Below are positions 3,136 to 19,302 of a stretch of DNA of 64,000 nucleotides, one piece after another (positions within the stretch are counted from its first letter, which is position 1; every line of letters begins with the position of its first letter). The notes beneath the pieces are model-generated. The model was not told where the DNA came from. It was given only the letters and a program-made list of their open reading frames with translations, and made no database searches. Made by a program: the position numbers and the translations under genes. Source of the stretch: Nitrososphaerota archaeon (GTDB lineage Archaea > Thermoproteota > Nitrososphaeria_A > Caldarchaeales > Caldarchaeaceae); NCBI GenBank assembly GCA_041641305.1, contig JBEPYN010000002.1, positions 448,001 through 512,000 of the forward strand, read 5' to 3'.

Positions 3136-3273
3136 CTGGCTGTGACAGCGCCAGCCAGCCAAAACACCCCTTCTTTTTTTCCTTCATATGCCCATACGCC
3201 TGAAACATGGCGTCCACCCCATAATCATTAAATGGGGTGGCGGGGGTGGTTGGCTGGCTCGCGCCTGGCTCCA

Positions 3274-3557
3274 TGCCCGTGTGCTGGGGCTGCATAGGCC
3301 TTGCCCGTGAGCGGGTCTATGCATCCTGCGCCCTATACACCGGCCACCCCCGCAGGGTCTTGCCCGTGTGCGGGCCCTGTGGTGAGCTTGCCCGTGAGCG
3401 GCTCCGGTGTGTGGGGGGCCTGCTTGCCCGTGTGCGGCGGCTGTCTGCAGGCAGGCGCTTGAGGCGGGTGACAGGGATGTCTCCTGCACCATGTGTTTGC
3501 CGGACTTGCCCGTGAGCGGTCGGCATACATGTGGGGAGCCTTCCTGCCCGTGCGCGG
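3274..3557 (+). repeat. Seven TGCCCGTG(A/T/C)GC(G/T)G direct repeats, irregular spacing
   Basis: Copies at 3274, 3302, 3361, 3389, 3425, 3507, 3545. Confidence 0.9.
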
Positions 3558-4199
3558 TTGGCTCCAGCGGGAGACACCCAAGCAGACGACATACAGACGA
3601 TGTTCAGAGGTTGTTCAGATGCTCCGCCAAGGAAGCTCTCGGAGCCATCTTATCCATGGGAGAGGCATGGTGTCTCTTCCATGGGCTTACTCTATCAAGG
3701 CGCCGTGGGGGTGCTTTGATGGAGAGGCTCCTAGCCCTGTTGGCGGAGACAGGTGACGAATAATGCTTCCGAATATTTCTGACGACATCCCCGAAGATTG
3801 ACACTGGTTCCATGGATTAAGCAGCCGATTCAACAATACCTAGGAGATACAGAGGTTCAAGGTATTCTGATAAGCAGTCGGATGACTCTAGATAACTACA
3901 ATGGTCTCAACAGGTCTCTAATAAACGCCGACAAAAACAGGTCAAAGACTATCAACGATACTTAGCACCTCCCTCGGCGGGCCAACCCCGGGAACAGGGG
4001 CTGGGAGGATGCGGAGACTCTCCCGGGCCGCATAGGCCCGCCTCCCCACAAAAACACGGGGAGGGAAGATGACCCTCCAAATCCTCCAAAAAATCCCCTG
4101 GCTCCCGGGGGTAAGGTCTGGATGGCGACCAGGGACTCCGCGGATGGGCGGGTCCGACCCGTCCGTGGAAACACTGCCCATCGGCCATATGGTGTGGGG

Positions 4200-4466
4200 G
4201 TGCAGAAGAAGTTGACAAGTAGTCTGCTGGTACCCGGATTGATAGCTCTGGCATTGGTCTATGGGATACAGTTGGTCAACGAGGGGCATCTGTTCGAAGG
4301 TGTTCTGTTGATGGTTGTAGGTATCTTTGGCGGAGTGTATGCTGAATACCTTCTGCAGAGATGGCGCATGAGTTACTGTGACTACTGCGGGGGCAAGATG
4401 AGGAAAGATGTCGGCGGACTATACTACTGCGACAGATGCAGACGCTTCGCTCCTCGACGGGCCTAA
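4200..4466 (+). CDS. Two-TM membrane protein with C-terminal Zn ribbon
   Basis: GTG 4200; two TM helices; CDYC...CDRC. Confidence 0.7.
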   Translation: MQKKLTSSLLVPGLIALALVYGIQLVNEGHLFEGVLLMVVGIFGGVYAEYLLQRWRMSYCDYCGGKMRKDVGGLYYCDRCRRFAPRRA

Positions 4467-4480
4467 GAGGGCGTGCAGGC

Positions 4481-5944
4481 ATGTGGGCTAGAGTTTTTGT
4501 GACACTGATAATCATCTTTGGCTTCGTAGGGTACGCTTGGTATGCAGCCATGTTAGCCTCTCAGAGATTGTTTGAACGTGGAATCATCAAAGAATCACCT
4601 ATGCCAACAATAGATGTCAAAACAATAACAACACAGGTGGCTCAGTACACAGGCATCGCTGTAACCCTGCTAATGATAGCCATTGTGGTAAAGAGGGTCG
4701 TTGAATCGGGTAGACTTCTGGGCGTCATTAAAGTCTCCGACCTTCAGAGGCATCTACTACTGCTTGGACCAACCGGTAGCGGCAAAACAAACACTGCTAA
4801 ACAGGCGATTGCCTTAGCCGTACGTCGTGGTGTCAGGGTAATCGTCATCGACTGGAAAGCCCTCTTCTCTCCGCCAGCGTTTTTCACGTCTCCCCAGCTC
4901 AGTTCCGCCGCATAGGGTTCGCGTGGAGCTTCTGGCGGAGCTGGGAGGGCCCAGAAAGGCGAGTACGTTAACTTCATCAAGGGAGCCTCCGTCGTCAGGA
5001 AACTCAACGTGTGGGACAACGGTGGTAGGTCGCCGAAGGAATGCGCTGTCCTCGCTGTCGAGACATTGAGAGAAATTACACGCGATATCGCAGATGTTTC
5101 ATCCGCCAGCGCAGCCCTTCTCCTGAGGGAGCTTGTAAAGCTCTACGGGAGAGGGGTGCCGAAGACATCCGACGTAGTTTCAGCTCTTGAGAAGTTCATA
5201 AACACCGCAATGGCGGAGCGGAGACTTGCCGAGGCGAATATGGCTTCTGCATTGCTTAGAAGGATGATGTGGCTCCAGATAGACGAGGAGAGGCCTGCGA
5301 AGAACATCATAGGCTCTGACAGGGTTGTTGTCTACGACTTATCAGAGCTCGGAAGCGTCTACCTGAAAACCATCTACAGCCTCAGCATCCTTTCAAAGAC
5401 CTACTACGGGGCCCTTAGACAGGGACAGTCCCAGAAACTAGAGACGCTGGTGATTGCAGAAGAGTGCCAAAACTACATACGTGGTAGGCGTTTCGACGAG
5501 CCTCCGTCGATTGGTGAGAGAATGGCTAACGAGCTGAGGGCCTACGGCGTCGGCATGGTCCTGATAAGCCCGGACCCTGTCCAGATACCCTGGCACCTCG
5601 CCAGAGACGTTGCAGCAGTAATATCCATAGGACTTCAGGCGATACCCGACAGCGTCAAGGACCTGTTGAGAACAATTGACCCCAAACAGGCGAAGAGAGT
5701 AATGATGGGTAAGAAGGCCTACGTCTATTACAACGGCAAACTGAAGACAGCCTCTCCGCCCAAGCCTCCAAAAGAAATAGAACTAAACGTTGACGTAAAA
5801 GAGGTGATTGAAGAGACTAAGCCTGAGGAGACTGTCGAGACTACTGCTACACAACCAGACAACTCTGGGGCAGAGGAGAGTGTTCAGACAATGCCGATAG
5901 AGCAGAAGGAGCCTTTGGAGGAGGCCCAGAGAGGCGTGAATTGA
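4481..5944 (+). CDS. Membrane-anchored HerA/VirB4/CedB-like ATPase, spliced join(4481..4857,4957..5944), 454 aa
   Basis: Two N-terminal TMs, Walker A GPTGSGKT, IDWKGEY restored by splicing, Walker B LVIAEECQN, ELRAYGVGM motif. Confidence 0.85.
4858..4956 (+). other. 99-nt archaeal-type pre-mRNA intron (bulge-helix-loop) in the ATPase gene
   Basis: Central helix CTGG 4852-55/CCAG 4951-54; AAA at 4856-58 and 4955-57; inner stems GCCCTCTT/GGGAGGGC and CTCCGCCAG/CTGGCGGAG; in-frame TAG at 4913-15. Confidence 0.85.
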
Positions 5945-5990
5945 TAGAGAGCCGGGGAAACCTCCTCTAAGGCTTGAAGAAGATGAAGAG

Positions 5991-6755
5991 ATGGTCGATG
6001 AAGACGAAGAGCAGGTGACAGAGGCCCCGCATGGGCGCATACCCCCACGGGAGGGAGTCCCGCCAAGATGATGTGGTGGTTGTGAGCGCCCCGGGAAAGC
6101 CGAACCACAGACACAACAAGAAAAAGCAGAAGAGGAGCAGGCAGATGAAACCACTGGTGGATTCCCCCTCCACGGCCACATGGTCGTGGAGGAGGCTTTC
6201 GCTGACGAGTCGGTTCTACGATGTGTTAGATGTGGGGCTTCGGCCTCGCTGACAGAGGCTACACAACTCATGGAGAAGCCTTGCCAAGAACCTCGAATGA
6301 CGCAGGATAACCTTCAGACCCGGTGCGGATGTGGACGGCCGGCGACAAAGCTTATGCCGTCATACGACCCGATAACCATGACGTTTAAAGACCTCTGCCT
6401 GTGCGACGGCTGTGCCAACGACTACCTCAACATCCTCAGGAGGTCAGGCCCAGCCCTAGGCAAGATGAGGGGGAGAATACCTGCGAACGGCTATTGGTTC
6501 AACCTTTACAACACCGTCTTCCAGGAGCTGGCTGGGACATACCCGTGCCCAGCCTGCGACCAGTTCTTCGACGACCTGTATTCCGCGGTCAAACACTTCG
6601 GCGAAAAACACATCGACAAGACAAAGACTCCAGAGGAGGTTGTCATAGACGGGGTTCCCGCCCTTAGGACATGGCAATACATATGGTGTACAAAATGTCT
6701 GAGGTTCTTCGAGAACGAGCGACATTTCCGTTCACATCTCCGAGACCATAGGTGA
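5991..6755 (+). CDS. Multi-Zn-finger protein with acidic N-terminus, spliced join(5991..6031,6098..6755), 232 aa
   Basis: One frame interrupted by a single TGA inside a BHB-bounded insert. CxxC motifs and C2H2-like fingers (CPAC...HFGEKH, CTKC...HLRDH). Confidence 0.75.
6032..6097 (+). other. 66-nt canonical BHB pre-mRNA intron
   Basis: Outer GGC 6023-25/GCC 6099-6101; central CCCG/CGGG; bulges CAT 6030-32 and AAA 6096-98; inner GGGCGC/GCGCCC; in-frame TGA at 6069-71. Confidence 0.8.
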
Positions 6756-7120
6756 AGCAGATGAAGTTCAGGGGAAAAATTTACAGGGATGGGGGAAGGC
6801 TGAAGCTGGTCTTTGACAAGCCCCTCCCGCGTGGGAGGGTGACGCTGCTGCTGACGAGGGTGGACGGAAAGGCTATGGAGTTGAAGTTCGATACAATGAT
6901 AACCAACAACGACCCCTATCGATTAAAGTGTCGGTTGCCACCGTTCCCGGAGCTGAGGCCCGGGGCGGTGGTCGAAGGAATAATCGAAGACGAGCTTAGA
7001 TGCCGCTGGTGCGGAGCCAAGTGCTCCGCACTCATCAACAACCTCTGCGACCATTGTTTCGAGGTATTCAACAGCCCCTACAAACCCCCTCTGGGAGAGG
7101 GTTGGGGAAGGCTGACGTAG
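6752..7120 (+). CDS. Hypothetical protein with C-terminal Zn finger
   Basis: GTGA overlap with the upstream stop; CRWC...CDHC. Confidence 0.7.
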   Translation: MKQMKFRGKIYRDGGRLKLVFDKPLPRGRVTLLLTRVDGKAMELKFDTMITNNDPYRLKCRLPPFPELRPGAVVEGIIEDELRCRWCGAKCSALINNLCDHCFEVFNSPYKPPLGEGWGRLT

Positions 7121-9287: not shown

Positions 9288-11088
9288 ATGGTCAGGGTAG
9301 TGGAGCTTCGGGAGGAGACTGAGCTTCTAGAAAAACTCAAGAATCGCTTTCCACACACTAGTCTACGTAGATATCAGGCCGACATCGCTAATAGGGTCTA
9401 CGAGAGCCTTTCCAACGGCTCTAGCATTCTTCTGGAGGGCCCTACGGGGCTGGGGAAGAGGCTATGAGGAGACTGTTTATGGGGGGTGGTTGGCTGGCTG
9501 GCGTCTCCGAGCCTCCTATACAGCCCCTGTATGGGCCGCGGTGAGCGCCTACGCGGAGGAGAAAGGTCTGAGGGTTCTATGGCTCACCCGGACGGCGTCC
9601 CAAGTAGCTCACATCGCCAGCGAGATAGGATGCATGCCCATCTACGGCCGCCGGCTTCTCTGTATCCATGAGACGGTTAGCAAGGTTGAGCAGAGACGGT
9701 TCAACGCGGCTTGTAGAGTTGTACGACTATCCGGACGTTGCTCATACTATCCCGGAAGGCCTAGCCAAATAAAGGCGAAGACTGTTGGAGAGATTAAAGA
9801 TGCCGGTAGGAAGTCGGTCACATGTCCCTACGAGCTTCAGCTGACATCGATGCCATACTCGACGTCGCTGGTCGCCACCCATAAACAGTTGTCTGTAGTT
9901 TCCTGGCTTTTGGCAAAATGGCGTTGGACCCGCGAGCGAACCATCTTGGTGCTCGACGAGTTCCAGAACATCTTGAAGACTGTTCTCGACCTCTCAAAAG
10001 ACGCCATAAGCCTGGCAACGCTCCACAAGGCCGCCGCAGAGGCAGCAAGGTATGGCTTCAGGGATATTTCCAGCAGTCTTTCAGAAGCTTATCAAAGATA
10101 CAAGGCGGTTGACGTTGACGAGGCTGAGGTAGAAAACCTACTGCCCAGCTTCGAAGAGCTCTTCGAGGCGGGGCAGGAGATACAGGCTAGGAAACTTGAG
10201 GAGAATGTTGTACCCGCCAGCTATGTGTTGAGCGTCGCAGACTTTAAGGCTGCTCTCGGCCAGCAGAAGCCCCTCCTAGTCAGGGAGGGTGAACGGGTTT
10301 GGCTGGAGGCGCTAGCAGACCCACGCGAGGAGCTTGAAAAGATTCTCGAAGGCTGGAGAACGGTCATAGCTATGACGGCCACGATGGATGCGGAACTCGT
10401 TGAACGCATGGCTTCAACCCAAGTGACGCTGTTGCGAGCAGGGTGGCCCTTCGACGATAATCTGAAGGCATACATTGTCAGCGGCCTTACGACGAGATAC
10501 AGGGACAGGGATGTGGAGCTCTATGAAGATGTCCGATGGCTTATAGAACAATCTCATGGAATGAGGACTCTCGTCTTCCTACCCAGCTATGAATTTGCTT
10601 CAATGATTCAGAAGAGGCTTAGCGACGCTATCGCCGAGCAACGGGGGATGACGCAGGAACAGGTGGAAGCCACGGCCGCTGAATTCGCGGAGGGTGGAAA
10701 AACGCTTTTAGCCGTCTTCGGTGGAAGGCTGGCAGAGGGCATCAACCTCCAAGCCGACTTGGTTATGCTGGTGGGCATACCATTCGCGAAACCATCACCG
10801 CGAACAAAGAAGCTCGAGGACAAGCTTGAGAATGTCTTTGGGAGCAGTGACCTTTCCCGGCTACATGGACTAGTTTTACCGGCCCTCTTTGCCGCCGTGC
10901 AGGCCGCCGGTAGGGCTGTCAGAGGCCCCAATGATAGGGCTCTGGTCCTGCTCGTCGACGACAGATACCGCCGTTTGACAAAACACTTGCCCAGATGGTT
11001 CAGAGACTTGGTCTCAGATAAGCCGGTCAAGCTCACAGATGTTCCCATTCTATTGGATGAGTGGTTGTCATGGATGAAGAGCGTTTGA
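9288..11088 (+). CDS. XPD/Rad3/DinG-family Fe-S DNA helicase, spliced join(9288..9458,9520..11088), 579 aa
   Basis: Q motif RRYQ, Walker A GPTGLGKT restored by splicing, four Fe-S cysteines, LDEFQN, GRLAEGIN, QAAGRAVRG. Confidence 0.9.
9459..9519 (+). other. 61-nt canonical BHB pre-mRNA intron in the helicase Walker A motif
   Basis: Outer GGGGCTG 9446-52/CAGCCCC 9521-27; central GGGA/TCCT; bulges AGA 9457-59 and ATA 9518-20; inner GGCT/AGCC and GGAGAC/GTCTCC. The insert causes a stop and a frameshift. Confidence 0.92.
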
Positions 11089-12512
11089 GACACGTTCTTG
11101 AACGCATCCGCAGACAGAACATCAACTACGTGAAGCTCAGAGGACTTGTCAGCCGATTCATGACTCTCAACCCCGAGGCAGACCCAGAAGCAATAGATTG
11201 GACAGCCGTCTACGATGACTCCCTAAGCTACGACGAACTCGTCGAAGCATTTGAAAAAGAGTATCCCATGTACCGGTGGCGTGAGACAGCTCCCGCAGAT
11301 GACAAACAAATCGAGGACATGCTGGTGAACCATATCCTCAACCAGGTCGAGGACCTTACAGAAGAGTCTCTCAAGTCGCTCGTCAATGCCTTGGAGGAGC
11401 GGCTGGAGGCTCTACGGCAGGCCGAAACCCCGGCATCTCCGACGGAGCAACAACCCGAACATACACAGATGCAACATCCTCAGCACCAACCGCCGACTAT
11501 GACTGAAAACATACAACAGCCAGCGCCACAGCCGAAGGTAACCCTCAAGCTTCTCGCATCCTACCCCTTCCTAGCGGAGGCTAGGGAGGTGGTTAGGGGC
11601 GTGAGCTTCGAGGGTTTACCCAGGGCGGTATACAAAAGAGCCCGGGAGAGGCTAATGGAGGCTCTCGAACGGGGAGAGCTGGGGGTTGTTCCCCGGCTCG
11701 ATGAACCGTTCGTGGAGCTTCTCTCCTTTCCCGTGGCGAAGGCCGTTGTCCACACAATCGACGACGACTGGCTGAAAAGGCGATGGGCCCTCGCAGAGTC
11801 AGCGAGGGTCGAGAGGCTTCTACTGAAGGAGAATGCGGATGTCTCAGAATGGCTCCTCTCCCGGCTACTTGAGGTCAGGCGAGAGGGAGAGGAGTATGCG
11901 CTGAGGTTCACTGATTACCTAAAGCTTGCTGAAGGCCTTACCACCGATATCTCATGGAAGCTAGTAAACCAAAAACTGCATCGAGGCTGGGTCTTCATAA
12001 CAAAGACTCGTCTCATACGACTCATCAGACAAAAACTCTACCAACTTCTCTATAACAGCTTCCAGCAGACGCCCAAACTGACAAAAATACCTCAACAAAT
12101 CGCCGAAATGGTCGCCGACATAACCGAGGAGCTCCAAAAAATCAAAGCCCGGGCAGGACGGGTCACACCCGTCAAAGGCGCAATACCGCCCTGTATGAAG
12201 ACGATTAGCGATAGGCTGGCGGACGCCAGCCACACAGAGAACTTCGTATACGCCGCCTACTTGGTCAATACGGGATACAGCATCGAGGAAATCGTTGATG
12301 TCTTTAGGAAGAGAGCTGACTTCGACGAGAGGATAGCACGGTATCAGATAGAGCATATAGCGGGGCTGAGGGGGAGCCGTGTGAAATACCGGCCACCTTC
12401 ATGCTCCCGCATGCGGGAACTCGGACTATGCATCGAGAACGGAAGACTATGCCCACCGAATATCCACAACCCACTACAATACCGACCTAGACAACAGCGA
12501 CAACCCACCTAA
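11070..12512 (+). CDS. DNA primase large subunit (PriL)-like protein with ~150-aa N-terminal extension
   Basis: LASYPFL, W.LVNQ.L..GWV, and an Fe-S C-terminus PPCM...DFDERIARYQIEHIAG...YRPPSC...GLC...C...NPL. Confidence 0.85.
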   Translation: MDEERLRHVLERIRRQNINYVKLRGLVSRFMTLNPEADPEAIDWTAVYDDSLSYDELVEAFEKEYPMYRWRETAPADDKQIEDMLVNHILNQVEDLTEESLKSLVNALEERLEALRQAETPASPTEQQPEHTQMQHPQHQPPTMTENIQQPAPQPKVTLKLLASYPFLAEAREVVRGVSFEGLPRAVYKRARERLMEALERGELGVVPRLDEPFVELLSFPVAKAVVHTIDDDWLKRRWALAESARVERLLLKENADVSEWLLSRLLEVRREGEEYALRFTDYLKLAEGLTTDISWKLVNQKLHRGWVFITKTRLIRLIRQKLYQLLYNSFQQTPKLTKIPQQIAEMVADITEELQKIKARAGRVTPVKGAIPPCMKTISDRLADASHTENFVYAAYLVNTGYSIEEIVDVFRKRADFDERIARYQIEHIAGLRGSRVKYRPPSCSRMRELGLCIENGRLCPPNIHNPLQYRPRQQRQPT

Positions 12513-12667: not shown

Positions 12668-13066
12668 ATGGACTCGTCTCCCGAGAGGCTGTTTGATGAC
12701 TCGGGAGCGCCCGCGGTTCCAAGGCCCGCCGCGGGCGACAAGTGCCAGGGCCTGAGTTCGGGGGGTGGTTCGACTTATGAGCGTCTGCTGGAGCGCTACG
12801 GCGGCTTCTTCGAGGAGCTTGGCTATGGTTGTCTCGCCAGCTTTAAGCATCTGATTGAGCAAGTGGAGGTGACTATCGATACGGCGACATCTAATGATGT
12901 CAACCTGTTTGCTAAGCTCCATGTGCTAAAGTCTGCGAGGGCCTCGGTAGAAGTATTTACGGAGTATTATAGTCGATTCCTGCCACCTACTGTCGTCAAT
13001 AACCTGCGAGCTGACCTGACATTTCTGCTTGAGCGTGCTGAGGAGGTGGTGTTGACTTTTGGCTGA
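12668..13066 (+). CDS. Hypothetical protein
   Basis: AGGTGG RBS, ATG 12668; overlaps the MTase start. Confidence 0.65.
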   Translation: MDSSPERLFDDSGAPAVPRPAAGDKCQGLSSGGGSTYERLLERYGGFFEELGYGCLASFKHLIEQVEVTIDTATSNDVNLFAKLHVLKSARASVEVFTEYYSRFLPPTVVNNLRADLTFLLERAEEVVLTFG

Positions 13067-13970
13067 ATTCATAGACCCCACCATTCTGAAAGGGTGGTGG
13101 GGTTCCGAGGAATACCAGAGGCTGTTATCCTTCGAGCCGGAAAATGCAGGTGACTACTATCGGTTACCATTCGCCAAATACAACGAGCTCTTTCCGTTCA
13201 TCAAAGTCAAGATTGAGCACCCTGCAGTGATGAACCCATACTTGGCGATTTTCCTTTGGCGGCGTTACGTAAAACCAAATGATGTAATAATCGACCCTAT
13301 GGCTGGGATAGGGGGTACACCCGATATGTAGGGGCCCAGCTTTATCCCAGCCATAGCCTGCAGATTGACCAATGATAACCACTTAATCCTCAACGATATT
13401 GAGTCGACTTACGCCAGACTCTCTGAGGAGCTTCTTTCGGAGATGCTGGTCGTTACTAATCACAGCACCCTGCTGGACGTCTACAACGTAAACGCTGCCT
13501 CTCTTTATGAACTTCTTAGACCAAGAGGACTTGCTGGAGGCGTACGGAGGAGGGTTATTATTACCTCTCCTCCGTATGGCCTCCTCAGGCCCTGTGATAG
13601 CTTCAGCCCGAGGTTTGGCAGACTGACGGTAACTTCCGCCGGTAACCTTAGCGTGATAACCGGTAAACACTTTAGGGCGGCTTGGCTGGGCGTGCTGACT
13701 TCGATGTATCTCTGTCTCAACCAGTTCCATAGAAACCGTGACTTGGCTGTGATTGTCCTCAAAAACTTCAAGAATAACAATGTGGAAAAGGCTGTTGGAA
13801 AAAACCTCGTCAATTTAACGGTTGAACTCGCGGAGTTCGTTGGATTCAAACATCTCGAGACGCTGAAGTTCAAGATTTCAGGCAGCCACTTCGCCAGATA
13901 CCACGACATCAAGCAACATGTCCATGACCTCTGGCACGAATATGCGCTGGTCTTCCGCAAGGTGGTGTAG
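13059..13970 (+). CDS. Amino (N4-C/N6-A) DNA methyltransferase, spliced join(13059..13318,13340..13970), 296 aa
   Basis: HPA motif, SAM-binding IIDPMAGIGGT, catalytic IITSPPY. Both ORF halves are in one frame, separated by a TAG inside a BHB insert. Confidence 0.85.
13319..13339 (+). other. 21-nt canonical BHB pre-mRNA intron next to the SAM-binding motif
   Basis: 16-bp outer helix CTATGGCTGGGATAGG/TTTATCCCAGCCATAG; central GGGT/GCCC; bulges ACA 13317-19 and AGC 13338-40; inner CCC/GGG; in-frame TAG at 13329-31. Confidence 0.9.
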
Positions 13971-14819
13971 ATGAGGATTTTCGCTGATGTTCATAGGAAA
14001 AAGGATGACAGCGGCTACCGCATCACATATACAACTGACGGCGAAGTCTTTAAACACGTTGATTCTCCGATGGACATCCCCGCGCAGGCAGGAGACGAGG
14101 TATTCGTTGACACTATACCGATAATCCACACCGACGCATTCATAGAGCTACTGAGGAGAGGTGTAGAGGTCTATTATCTACGAAGACTCTCACTTATTGA
14201 AAAGACAAGACAGAGACTGGGGATACCGAAGTCAGCCAAAAATGACGTAAAAATTCTGATGAACATTGAGAAGAAATGGTTCAAGAGAGTTGACGAGGAC
14301 TTCTTGAGCATGCGTCAGATTATTTCGGCGTTTAGGAGATTGGATAGAGACAAACAGAGGTTGGAGAACCAGTCTAAGGACGTGCCGGAGATTACAAAGG
14401 AAAGCTTCAGGAGGCTCATAGACCATACAGAGGAGGAGAAGTTGGTAATAGCCAAACCAATAGTAGAAGAAGCAGAGAAGAGGCTTTCGTTATTTAGAGT
14501 AGTAGCGCAGGAGCTGGGTGTTGCAGACGATAATCATTCGATGGGAAGAGAGGCACTGGCCGAACTACTGACATACGTAGACTTCAGCAAATCCTTCAGA
14601 AAAGTCAGAGAGTATCTCGGACTCTTCAGAAACCCGAAGACCAAAAACATGAGATACAGCCACAGTTCTAGGAAGGCGTTGAACCGTCTAACAATGTCGC
14701 TGACGGGCAGAGAGCCAAAAGCAGAAGACGAGGAAACAATAGCTTTCAAGATATGGCTGACGTTCCGACGGGAAAACCAAAAGAGGCTGGCGGGCATACC
14801 GGCCCAACAACAGGGATAA
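13971..14819 (+). CDS. IS110-related RuvC + coiled-coil + Nop-like protein (TasR-like)
   Basis: IFADVH, VFVDT and KSAKNDV resemble the IS110 RuvC acidic motifs. F.KSFRKVREYLGL...RYSHSSRKAL resembles the IS110/Nop C-terminal domain but lacks the (Q/S)SG serine loop. Confidence 0.7.
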   Translation: MRIFADVHRKKDDSGYRITYTTDGEVFKHVDSPMDIPAQAGDEVFVDTIPIIHTDAFIELLRRGVEVYYLRRLSLIEKTRQRLGIPKSAKNDVKILMNIEKKWFKRVDEDFLSMRQIISAFRRLDRDKQRLENQSKDVPEITKESFRRLIDHTEEEKLVIAKPIVEEAEKRLSLFRVVAQELGVADDNHSMGREALAELLTYVDFSKSFRKVREYLGLFRNPKTKNMRYSHSSRKALNRLTMSLTGREPKAEDEETIAFKIWLTFRRENQKRLAGIPAQQQG

Positions 14820-14910
14820 AACCCATAGGCCGGTATGTCATGTTATAAAACGAACTGGCTCTCTTGCCAGTTATGTCCCAACCTTTAACGACCGGCCTCT
14901 TTTTGGGTTT
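14819..14910 (+). ncRNA. Candidate dual-guide RNA (tigRNA/bridge-like)
   Basis: Stem AGGCCGGT/ACCGGCCT, apical stem AACTGGC/GCCAGTT, and a symmetric internal loop with two copies of ATGTC-N9-AACG; outer AAACCCA/TGGGTTT. Confidence 0.65.
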
Positions 14911-14948
14911 CCTAGGTGTTGTTTGGTGGTTGCCTGCCAGCCAACCAT

Positions 14949-14990
14949 CCCCCTATTTTTCCCTTCTTTTTGTGATGTTTTTTGTTTATA
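14949..14990 (+). terminator. Archaeal oligo-T terminator-like tract at the element end
   Basis: CCCCCTATTTTT followed by further T runs; similar tracts at 2843-2855, 3165-3180, 7185-7191, 8223-8237 and 12514-12528. Confidence 0.55.
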
Positions 14991-19143: not shown

Positions 19144-19248
19144 GGGCCCGTAGCTTAGCATGGATAGAGCGCTGGCCTCCGGAGCCAGAGGTCGTGAGCG
19201 GCGGTACGGAAGTGCCGCGCCGGCAGGGTTCAAATCCCACCGGGCCCG
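19144..19248 (+). tRNA. tRNA-Arg(CCG) with a 30-nt non-canonical intron (19197-19226) at position 51/52
   Basis: Acceptor GGGCCCG/CGGGCCC; anticodon arm CTGGC-CT-CCG-GA-GCCAG. The T arm GTGGG-TTCAAAT-CCCAC forms after cutting bulges TGA and AGG around helix GTCG/CGGC. TTTAAATA upstream. Confidence 0.93.
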
Positions 19249-19302
19249 TAAAATATGTCACTGGAGGGGTTGTGGATTTTTAACAAGCCGTGAATATAGC
19301 TT

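Follow-up and report, generated by a model that had tools for sequence, protein, structure and literature searches.

The helicase gene of a Caldarchaeales archaeon from a hot spring is split by a 61-nt insert within its Walker A motif, and this insert is very likely a tRNA-type (BHB) mRNA intron in a live gene, spliced by the host with EndA as the cutting and RtcB as the joining enzyme. Exon 1 of the XPD/Rad3-like helicase (9288–9458 on the forward strand of the window, i.e., the whole 64,000-nucleotide stretch of DNA analyzed here) contributes 57 codons, which carry the Q motif and Walker A up to Lys57, and its ATG at 9288 is preceded by a strong Shine-Dalgarno tract. The intron (9459–9519, forward strand) shifts the reading frame and contains an in-frame TGA at 9465–9467. 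Exon 2 (9520–11088, forward strand) starts at Thr58 and encodes Walker B (DEFQ), motif VI, and four Cys (residues 105, 122, 131, and 159) that are invariant among homologs. As a first-pass annotation of this DNA had proposed, excising the 61 nt of 9459–9519 produces a single open frame over 9288–11088, with 579 aa and the junction EGPTGLGK|TAPVW. The division of Walker A between Lys and Thr by a BHB intron is strongly supported, in that 43 distinct intronless loci pass through the motif ungapped (PTGLGK|T).

All parts of the BHB described in that annotation can be found in the DNA. The 5′ side (9446–9459, forward strand) comprises one strand of the 7-bp outer helix (9446–9452), one strand of the central helix (GGGA, 9453–9456), and the bulge AGA (9457–9459); the 3′ side (9514–9527, forward strand) comprises the opposing TCCT (9514–9517), the bulge ATA (9518–9520), and the second strand of the outer helix (9521–9527). 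One of the central pairs is G-U, and a 4-bp inner stem (9460–9463/9510–9513) closes the intron side. The 4-bp helix with 3-nt bulges on opposite strands is the geometry of EndA-type introns, and cutting after the second base of each bulge, i.e., after 9458 and after 9519 as predicted, yields exactly the sequence of intronless homologs. The flanking helices are also present, with an exon helix of 7 bp (extendable) and an intron helix of 4 bp here, and an outer helix of 4–7 bp among the genes that carry the insert. In a scan of the 1.66-Mb genome that did not require ORF repair, this was the only BHB of such strength, and 12 shuffled genomes gave two in total.

Fold prediction gave a mixed picture. 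In this genome a slipped register is favored over the strict BHB by 2.6 kcal/mol at 37°C and by 1.4 kcal/mol at 65°C, the probability of the central helix is about 0.02 at 37°C and 0.1 at 65°C, and the fold z-score is only about −1; the BHB is the predicted minimum-energy fold in the homologs L021, L023, L003, and L030. An Rfam search at the intron returned no match. A group I or group II intron was rejected, given the length of the insert, this Rfam result, and the catalytic core of several hundred bases that the class needs. An assembly artefact, a concern raised in the first-pass annotation, is ruled out by the identity of 106 bases in two independent assemblies (L264 and L265).

The identification of the product as an XPD-like helicase was also borne out: exon 2 matches DEAD_2 and Helicase_C_2, and a search with an intronless homolog finds Thermoplasma XPD structures at E of about 1e-36. 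Together with the Fe-S cysteines and SF2 motifs, these domains place the protein in the XPD/Rad3/DinG family of SF2. Assignment as the XPD/Rad3 repair ortholog (TIGR00604) was rejected, as its scores of 98–113 bits lie below the curated cut-off of 247 and helicase matches are patchy, occurring in 10 of 75 genomes of the order.

In the mechanism that we propose, the transcript would fold into the BHB, the two-subunit host EndA would cut after 9458 and after 9519, and RtcB would ligate the exons, restoring the Lys-Thr step of Walker A; the 61-nt intron would be released, probably as a circle. The full helicase would be made only from spliced RNA, because the exon 1 frame of unspliced RNA ends at the TGA at 9465–9467 and gives only a 59-aa peptide. 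We infer cutting and joining in vivo from the anatomy of the site and from the enzymes that the host encodes, namely two EndA subunits (two PF01974 genes, at C1:295824 and C3:39058) and RtcB. Moreover, the host cbf5 gene contains a 14-nt BHB intron (G000:C1:76821-76834) in its catalytic Asp codon, a site at which splicing is proven in Crenarchaeota (PMC2738675). We found this intron, with lengths of 13–23 nt, in 28 of 30 listed Caldarchaeales loci (L230–L257), a group that does not appear in the 2009 cbf5 survey table (PMC2738675). Since EndA and RtcB are encoded and cbf5 has an intron at the known site, the lineage very probably already splices mRNA. Apart from cbf5, no candidate BHB whose removal would restore an ORF in a host gene was convincing; the highest-ranked (C1:501493) would fuse two separate genes. 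RtcB itself lies within a 975-aa open frame (G000:C1:535991-538729) whose Pfam matches are separated by a long stretch that is probably an intein.

Helicase homologs with and without inserts

Close homologs of the helicase come from Candidatus Caldarchaeum and other Caldarchaeales, and most of them have no intron. Fifteen distinct carriers contain inserts of 35–183 nt (35, 36, 61, 78, 83, 84, 88, 91, 94, 96, or 183 nt) at the identical phosphodiester, which is the one predicted by the BHB rule. Each insert brings a stop or a frameshift, and the lengths occupy all three frames, even differing as 95 versus 96 nt in near-identical genes. These lengths argue against restoration of the frame by some route other than RNA splicing, i.e., ribosomal bypass or frameshifting, excision at the DNA level, or a two-chain enzyme. 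A stable hairpin and a stop codon right behind the Lys codon would suit such a route; however, the matching take-off and landing codons of a bypass are absent, a chain break within Walker A is implausible for a two-chain enzyme, and the exact 3-4-3 geometry is that of an EndA substrate. We consider restoration without splicing extremely improbable.

Covariation supports the BHB reading. The central 4-bp helix is paired in all 15 carriers, compared to 34–54% pairing in controls with slid partners. At the pair that involves the third Gly-codon base, seven carriers have C-G, five G-C, and three U-G, indicating compensatory changes, although the carriers are related to one another and these counts overstate the number of independent events. 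The exon-helix codons GGG CTG … ACA/ACG are fixed in all 15; intronless genes use many synonyms at these flanking codons, with ACC the commonest.

The helicase genes of the carriers are live, as judged from purifying selection on their exons: dN/dS for exon 2 is about 0.08–0.24 between carriers whose helicase proteins diverge by up to 38%, and exon 1 is constrained as well. The alternative, an unspliced pseudogene broken by a small MITE-like hairpin element, draws on the fact that the element family in which the gene resides does decay, with stops, frameshifts, or truncations elsewhere in L005, L006, L035, and L206. Against it stand the openness of both exons, the selection just described, and the occurrence at one site of unrelated inserts of many lengths with covarying BHB borders; a search for a target-site duplication at the helicase insert found none. 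This makes the pseudogene highly improbable. One decayed copy, in a Caldarchaeum genome (L206:141-252), keeps exon 1 and a 91-nt intron, while its exon 2 ends after a few codons.

The helicase intron is identical to that of L022 at 59 of 61 positions, with exon 2 only 62% identical between the two, whereas L019 has an exon 2 that is 90% identical to that of this gene and an unrelated intron. Judged by these comparisons, the helicase region is mosaic among elements.

A second intron family occurs at the same lysine. In another lineage, seven loci have unrelated inserts of 124–225 nt with the BHB junction 2 nt upstream, within the Lys codon. The first intronic base varies among them (A, G, or T), and Lys would be lost if this base were exonic; two loci have one mismatch in the central helix. 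On a quick tree with a provisional root, two second-family loci branch between intronless genes, and the presence or absence of the intron requires three changes or more. Repeated, separate gain at a single motif is the behavior of homing-type mobile introns. ORF-less derivatives of such introns have been discussed (PMC2738675), and with less certainty we regard the introns of the element as possible ORF-less remnants of mobile BHB introns that landed in highly conserved motifs. This origin rests on analogy because a homing-endonuclease ORF is absent from every intron of the helicase family (inserts of 35–225 nt). Searches of the element with LAGLIDADG_3 gave no match, and a long, endonuclease-bearing version was found neither in genome or viral scans nor among the metagenome matches listed. 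Once in place, such introns could persist if only exact deletion is tolerated and removal by the host costs little. A genome BLAST with the helicase intron, directed at an origin from a host tRNA intron, gave no match, and a 12-nt stretch that the intron has in common with exon 2 (9878–9889) is within chance. Elsewhere in the genome, a LAGLIDADG-type ORF (G000:C2:287705-288105) adjoins a tRNA-Ser gene on the opposite strand.

The intron interior

The first-pass annotation had pointed to a G-rich tract and a TTG at 9490, in frame with exon 2, from which unspliced mRNA might be translated into an ATPase-dead, N-truncated helicase with its own function. Both the tract and the in-frame TTG are present, the duplex of the tract with a generic anti-SD is calculated at −11.9 kcal/mol (−12.6 kcal/mol for ATG 9288), and the arrangement is in frame in this intron, L022, the L023 group, and L206. 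Conservation, however, does not support the isoform: in half of the carriers that have the TTG (L021, L031/L032, L035, and L146), it lies in another frame or is followed by a stop, and tract and TTG are both absent from L019, L004, L144, and L145. Furthermore, a closed stem-loop contains the tract, for which a better explanation is that it duplicates a non-coding repeat present at other sites of the element. A functional product from TTG 9490, predicted at 532 aa, is thus quite improbable, though a leaky start in this one genome is conceivable. A sigma-70 promoter scan gave matches at chance level, with a model that is not apt for archaea.

The intron contains a kink-turn-like motif (9460–9513, forward strand), in which a 3-bp stem, a UAU bulge, and tandem GA/GA (9466–9467 and 9509–9510) are followed by a 6-bp stem closing a G/U-rich loop. 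By sequence pattern it has the stem, 3-nt bulge, tandem G-A/A-G, and second stem of an L7Ae site. The GA/GA is shared with L022, L023, L031, L032, and L035, the pattern lying three pairs from the BHB, and with an RU bulge it occurs in six carriers from two clades. Despite the kink-turn core, a box C/D guide sRNA was rejected: the boxes are degenerate, and we saw no C′/D′ motif, Rfam match, or stable-RNA target.

The intron loop segment (9482–9499, forward strand), which includes the tract ahead of TTG 9490, is identical to an element repeat (3242–3259, forward strand) and complementary to C-rich segments at about 3149–3170 and at 14934–14956. The repeat pairs with 3149–3170 in a long stem. Both C-rich segments precede T runs, and the one at 14934–14956 (forward strand) is close to the element's right end. 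The loop match extends over 18 nt, whereas 3,000 random 61-mers of the host reach at most 15. Loop and repeats co-vary between lineages, as comparison of L023–L026 and L031 (19 nt) with this genome indicates.

These features raise the possibility that the intron is spliced but kept as a regulatory gate, with L7Ae at the kink-turn or the slipped register tuning splicing. The excised RNA might pair with the C-rich pre-terminator segments of the element, so that its replication and transfer genes would be coupled to the RNA-processing state of the host. Such a role would add to host splicing of a live gene rather than replace it. Besides the shared kink-turn and the loop match, the near-identity of the intron to that of L022 despite the diverged exon 2, and the density of introns in the element compared to one convincing host case, cbf5, are in line with this idea. 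On the other hand, kink-turn and loop motif are missing from L019, L003, L004, L030, L144, L145, and the second-site family, the repeats occur in intronless elements, and many elements have no helicase intron; repeat capture followed by recombination explains the pattern of loop and repeats equally well. We therefore treat regulation of splicing as a doubtful though conceivable addition. It is unlikely, by a further step, that the intron has been domesticated into a switch of element activity, with L7Ae bound at the kink-turn and the excised circle acting in trans on the terminator-like repeats. If that were so, the helicase, transfer ATPase, and methyltransferase of a mobile-element family would all depend on host tRNA-type splicing.

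Other introns and the surrounding element

The helicase intron is one of four or five BHB introns within 9 kb of the element, and three of the others follow the same BHB rule. A 99-nt intron (4858–4956, forward strand) interrupts a HerA/coupling-type ATPase at DWK|GEY; it has an in-frame stop and no stacked outer helix, and homologs are intronless at this site or have inserts of 83–156 nt. A 66-nt intron with an in-frame stop (6032–6097, forward strand) lies in an acidic linker ahead of a Zn-finger domain; the insert of L019 at this position is a different one, and L039–L088 have further inserts nearby. The shortest, 21 nt (13319–13339, forward strand), falls in SAM-binding motif I of a DNA methyltransferase, contains an in-frame stop, and is framed by a 16-bp exon helix; it ranked top in the genome-wide BHB scan. 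Splicing is predicted to give a methyltransferase ORF of 296 aa (13059–13970), and homologs have inserts of 18–23 nt at the motif I site or none (intronless in L036, L043, L051, and L056). In genome G031 (L170, L176, L180, and L182), the methyltransferase gene with its intron is present about ten times, as copies or pieces.

The tentative fifth case is a relaxed BHB-like insert of about 28 nt with uncertain borders (5930–5960, forward strand), which carries the stop codon of HerA within a long flanking helix. Its excision would tentatively join HerA and the Zn-finger part, the arrangement seen in L019. In L039, L044, and L058, taking out two linker introns merges the ATPase and the Zn-finger domain in one frame. 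By comparison with these four loci, the ORFs for the HerA-like ATPase, acidic linker, and Zn-finger at 4481–6755 may belong to a single gene of about 690 aa that contains three introns. The elements of L039, L044, and L058 have no helicase intron, and the two BHB introns in their ATPase–Zn-finger linker are 59–71 nt long. Elements combine introns in various ways, and in the family BHB introns are present at no fewer than six positions, spread over four protein regions. A 28-nt BHB-like hairpin at 7082–7109, near the end of ORF 6752–7120, is possibly due to chance; its excision would only trim the C-terminus.

The helicase gene is close to genes for PriL, the HerA/coupling-type ATPase, and the methyltransferase. 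The PriL (primase large-subunit) gene (11061–12512, forward strand) overlaps the end of the helicase gene, and no intron was found in it. In addition to the HerA-like ATPase inside the window, two HerA/VirB4-like ATPases are encoded within 10 kb upstream of it. From this gene content we read the element as integrated and of conjugative type; searches for a tyrosine integrase and for the element ends found neither. A role of the helicase in element replication appears more likely than one in repair.

Several further features were noted in and around the element. The stretch 13971–14819 encodes a protein of 282 aa that matches neither Pfam nor NCBIfam families; the genome has several paralogs of it, and a short structured repeat follows the gene. 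Two stretches of about 2 kb (G000:C1:518052-515851 and C1:441709-439938) contain pieces like 3145–4405 and 13824–14965 and have the same G-rich repeat, inverted, at each end; they are likely deletion derivatives or smaller elements. A tRNA-Arg(CCG) gene at 19144–19249 has an insert in its variable/T-arm region, and a paralog with a similar insert is located at C2:650735-650841.

Relation to known introns and helicases

Although the splicing chemistry is known, the combination found here is distinctive in its multi-intron mobile element, intronless relatives, and repeated gains at one motif. cbf5 has been described as the only case of a BHB intron in an archaeal coding region, with one more added in a Haloferax 5′ UTR (PMC7714728); predicted introns elsewhere and unproven 12-bp viral inserts have also been mentioned (PMC2738675). 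Our literature search, which covered few subscription journals, returned no report of this element or gene, and in the papers that it covered cbf5 is the only archaeal gene with confirmed splicing within its coding sequence.

The closest likeness is to the cbf5 pre-mRNA intron of Desulfurococcales and Sulfolobales (Watanabe 2002; Yokobori 2009, PMC2738675), which is also short, ORF-less, and located in a coding region at a catalytic motif with BHB borders. It is likewise cut after the second bulge base, variable in length, and gained or lost among relatives (PMC2738675). The present family differs in its host gene, an SF2 helicase on a mobile element, its length (35–225 nt versus 16–44 nt in cbf5), its internal kink-turn, its two intron positions 2 nt apart, and the three or four further introns in neighboring genes; splicing has been shown for cbf5, while here it is deduced from sequence. 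BHB borders, patchiness, conserved targets, and a hairpin-rich, variable interior are shared with the archaeal rRNA introns that have homing endonucleases and with their ORF-less derivatives (PMC2738675, PMC3608112), but here the target is mRNA and no member has an endonuclease ORF. In the BHB intron of the Haloferax HVO_1309 5′ UTR (Schwarz 2020, PMC7714728), EndA acts on mRNA, as we predict here; unlike the helicase intron, it lies outside the reading frame and the protein needs no restoring. The putative 12-bp introns of an archaeal virus (Peng et al., as cited in PMC2738675) are, in that secondary account, similarly proposed introns in protein genes of a mobile element. As described there, they are in frame, of fixed length, and unproven in splicing; the helicase inserts, by contrast, disrupt the reading frame, and their BHB borders covary.

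These genes are informative in that two distinct intron families occur at a single Walker A lysine and the intronless relatives serve as controls, and mRNA splicing by the tRNA endonuclease looks routine in this lineage as far as sequence can indicate. The introns of the element are small, ready substrates for testing intron origin and spread and the regulation of a mobile element. In public databases, its intron-bearing genes are mis-annotated as fragments.

The predicted protein resembles archaeal XPD/Rad3 Fe-S helicases (e.g., Thermoplasma Ta0057, PDB 4a15) in DEAD_2, Helicase_C_2, the Q motif, Walker A, the four Cys, and motif VI. It differs from them, beyond its sub-threshold TIGR00604 score and patchy distribution, in a Walker B of the form DExQ and in a gene that always stands beside a PriL gene on an element.
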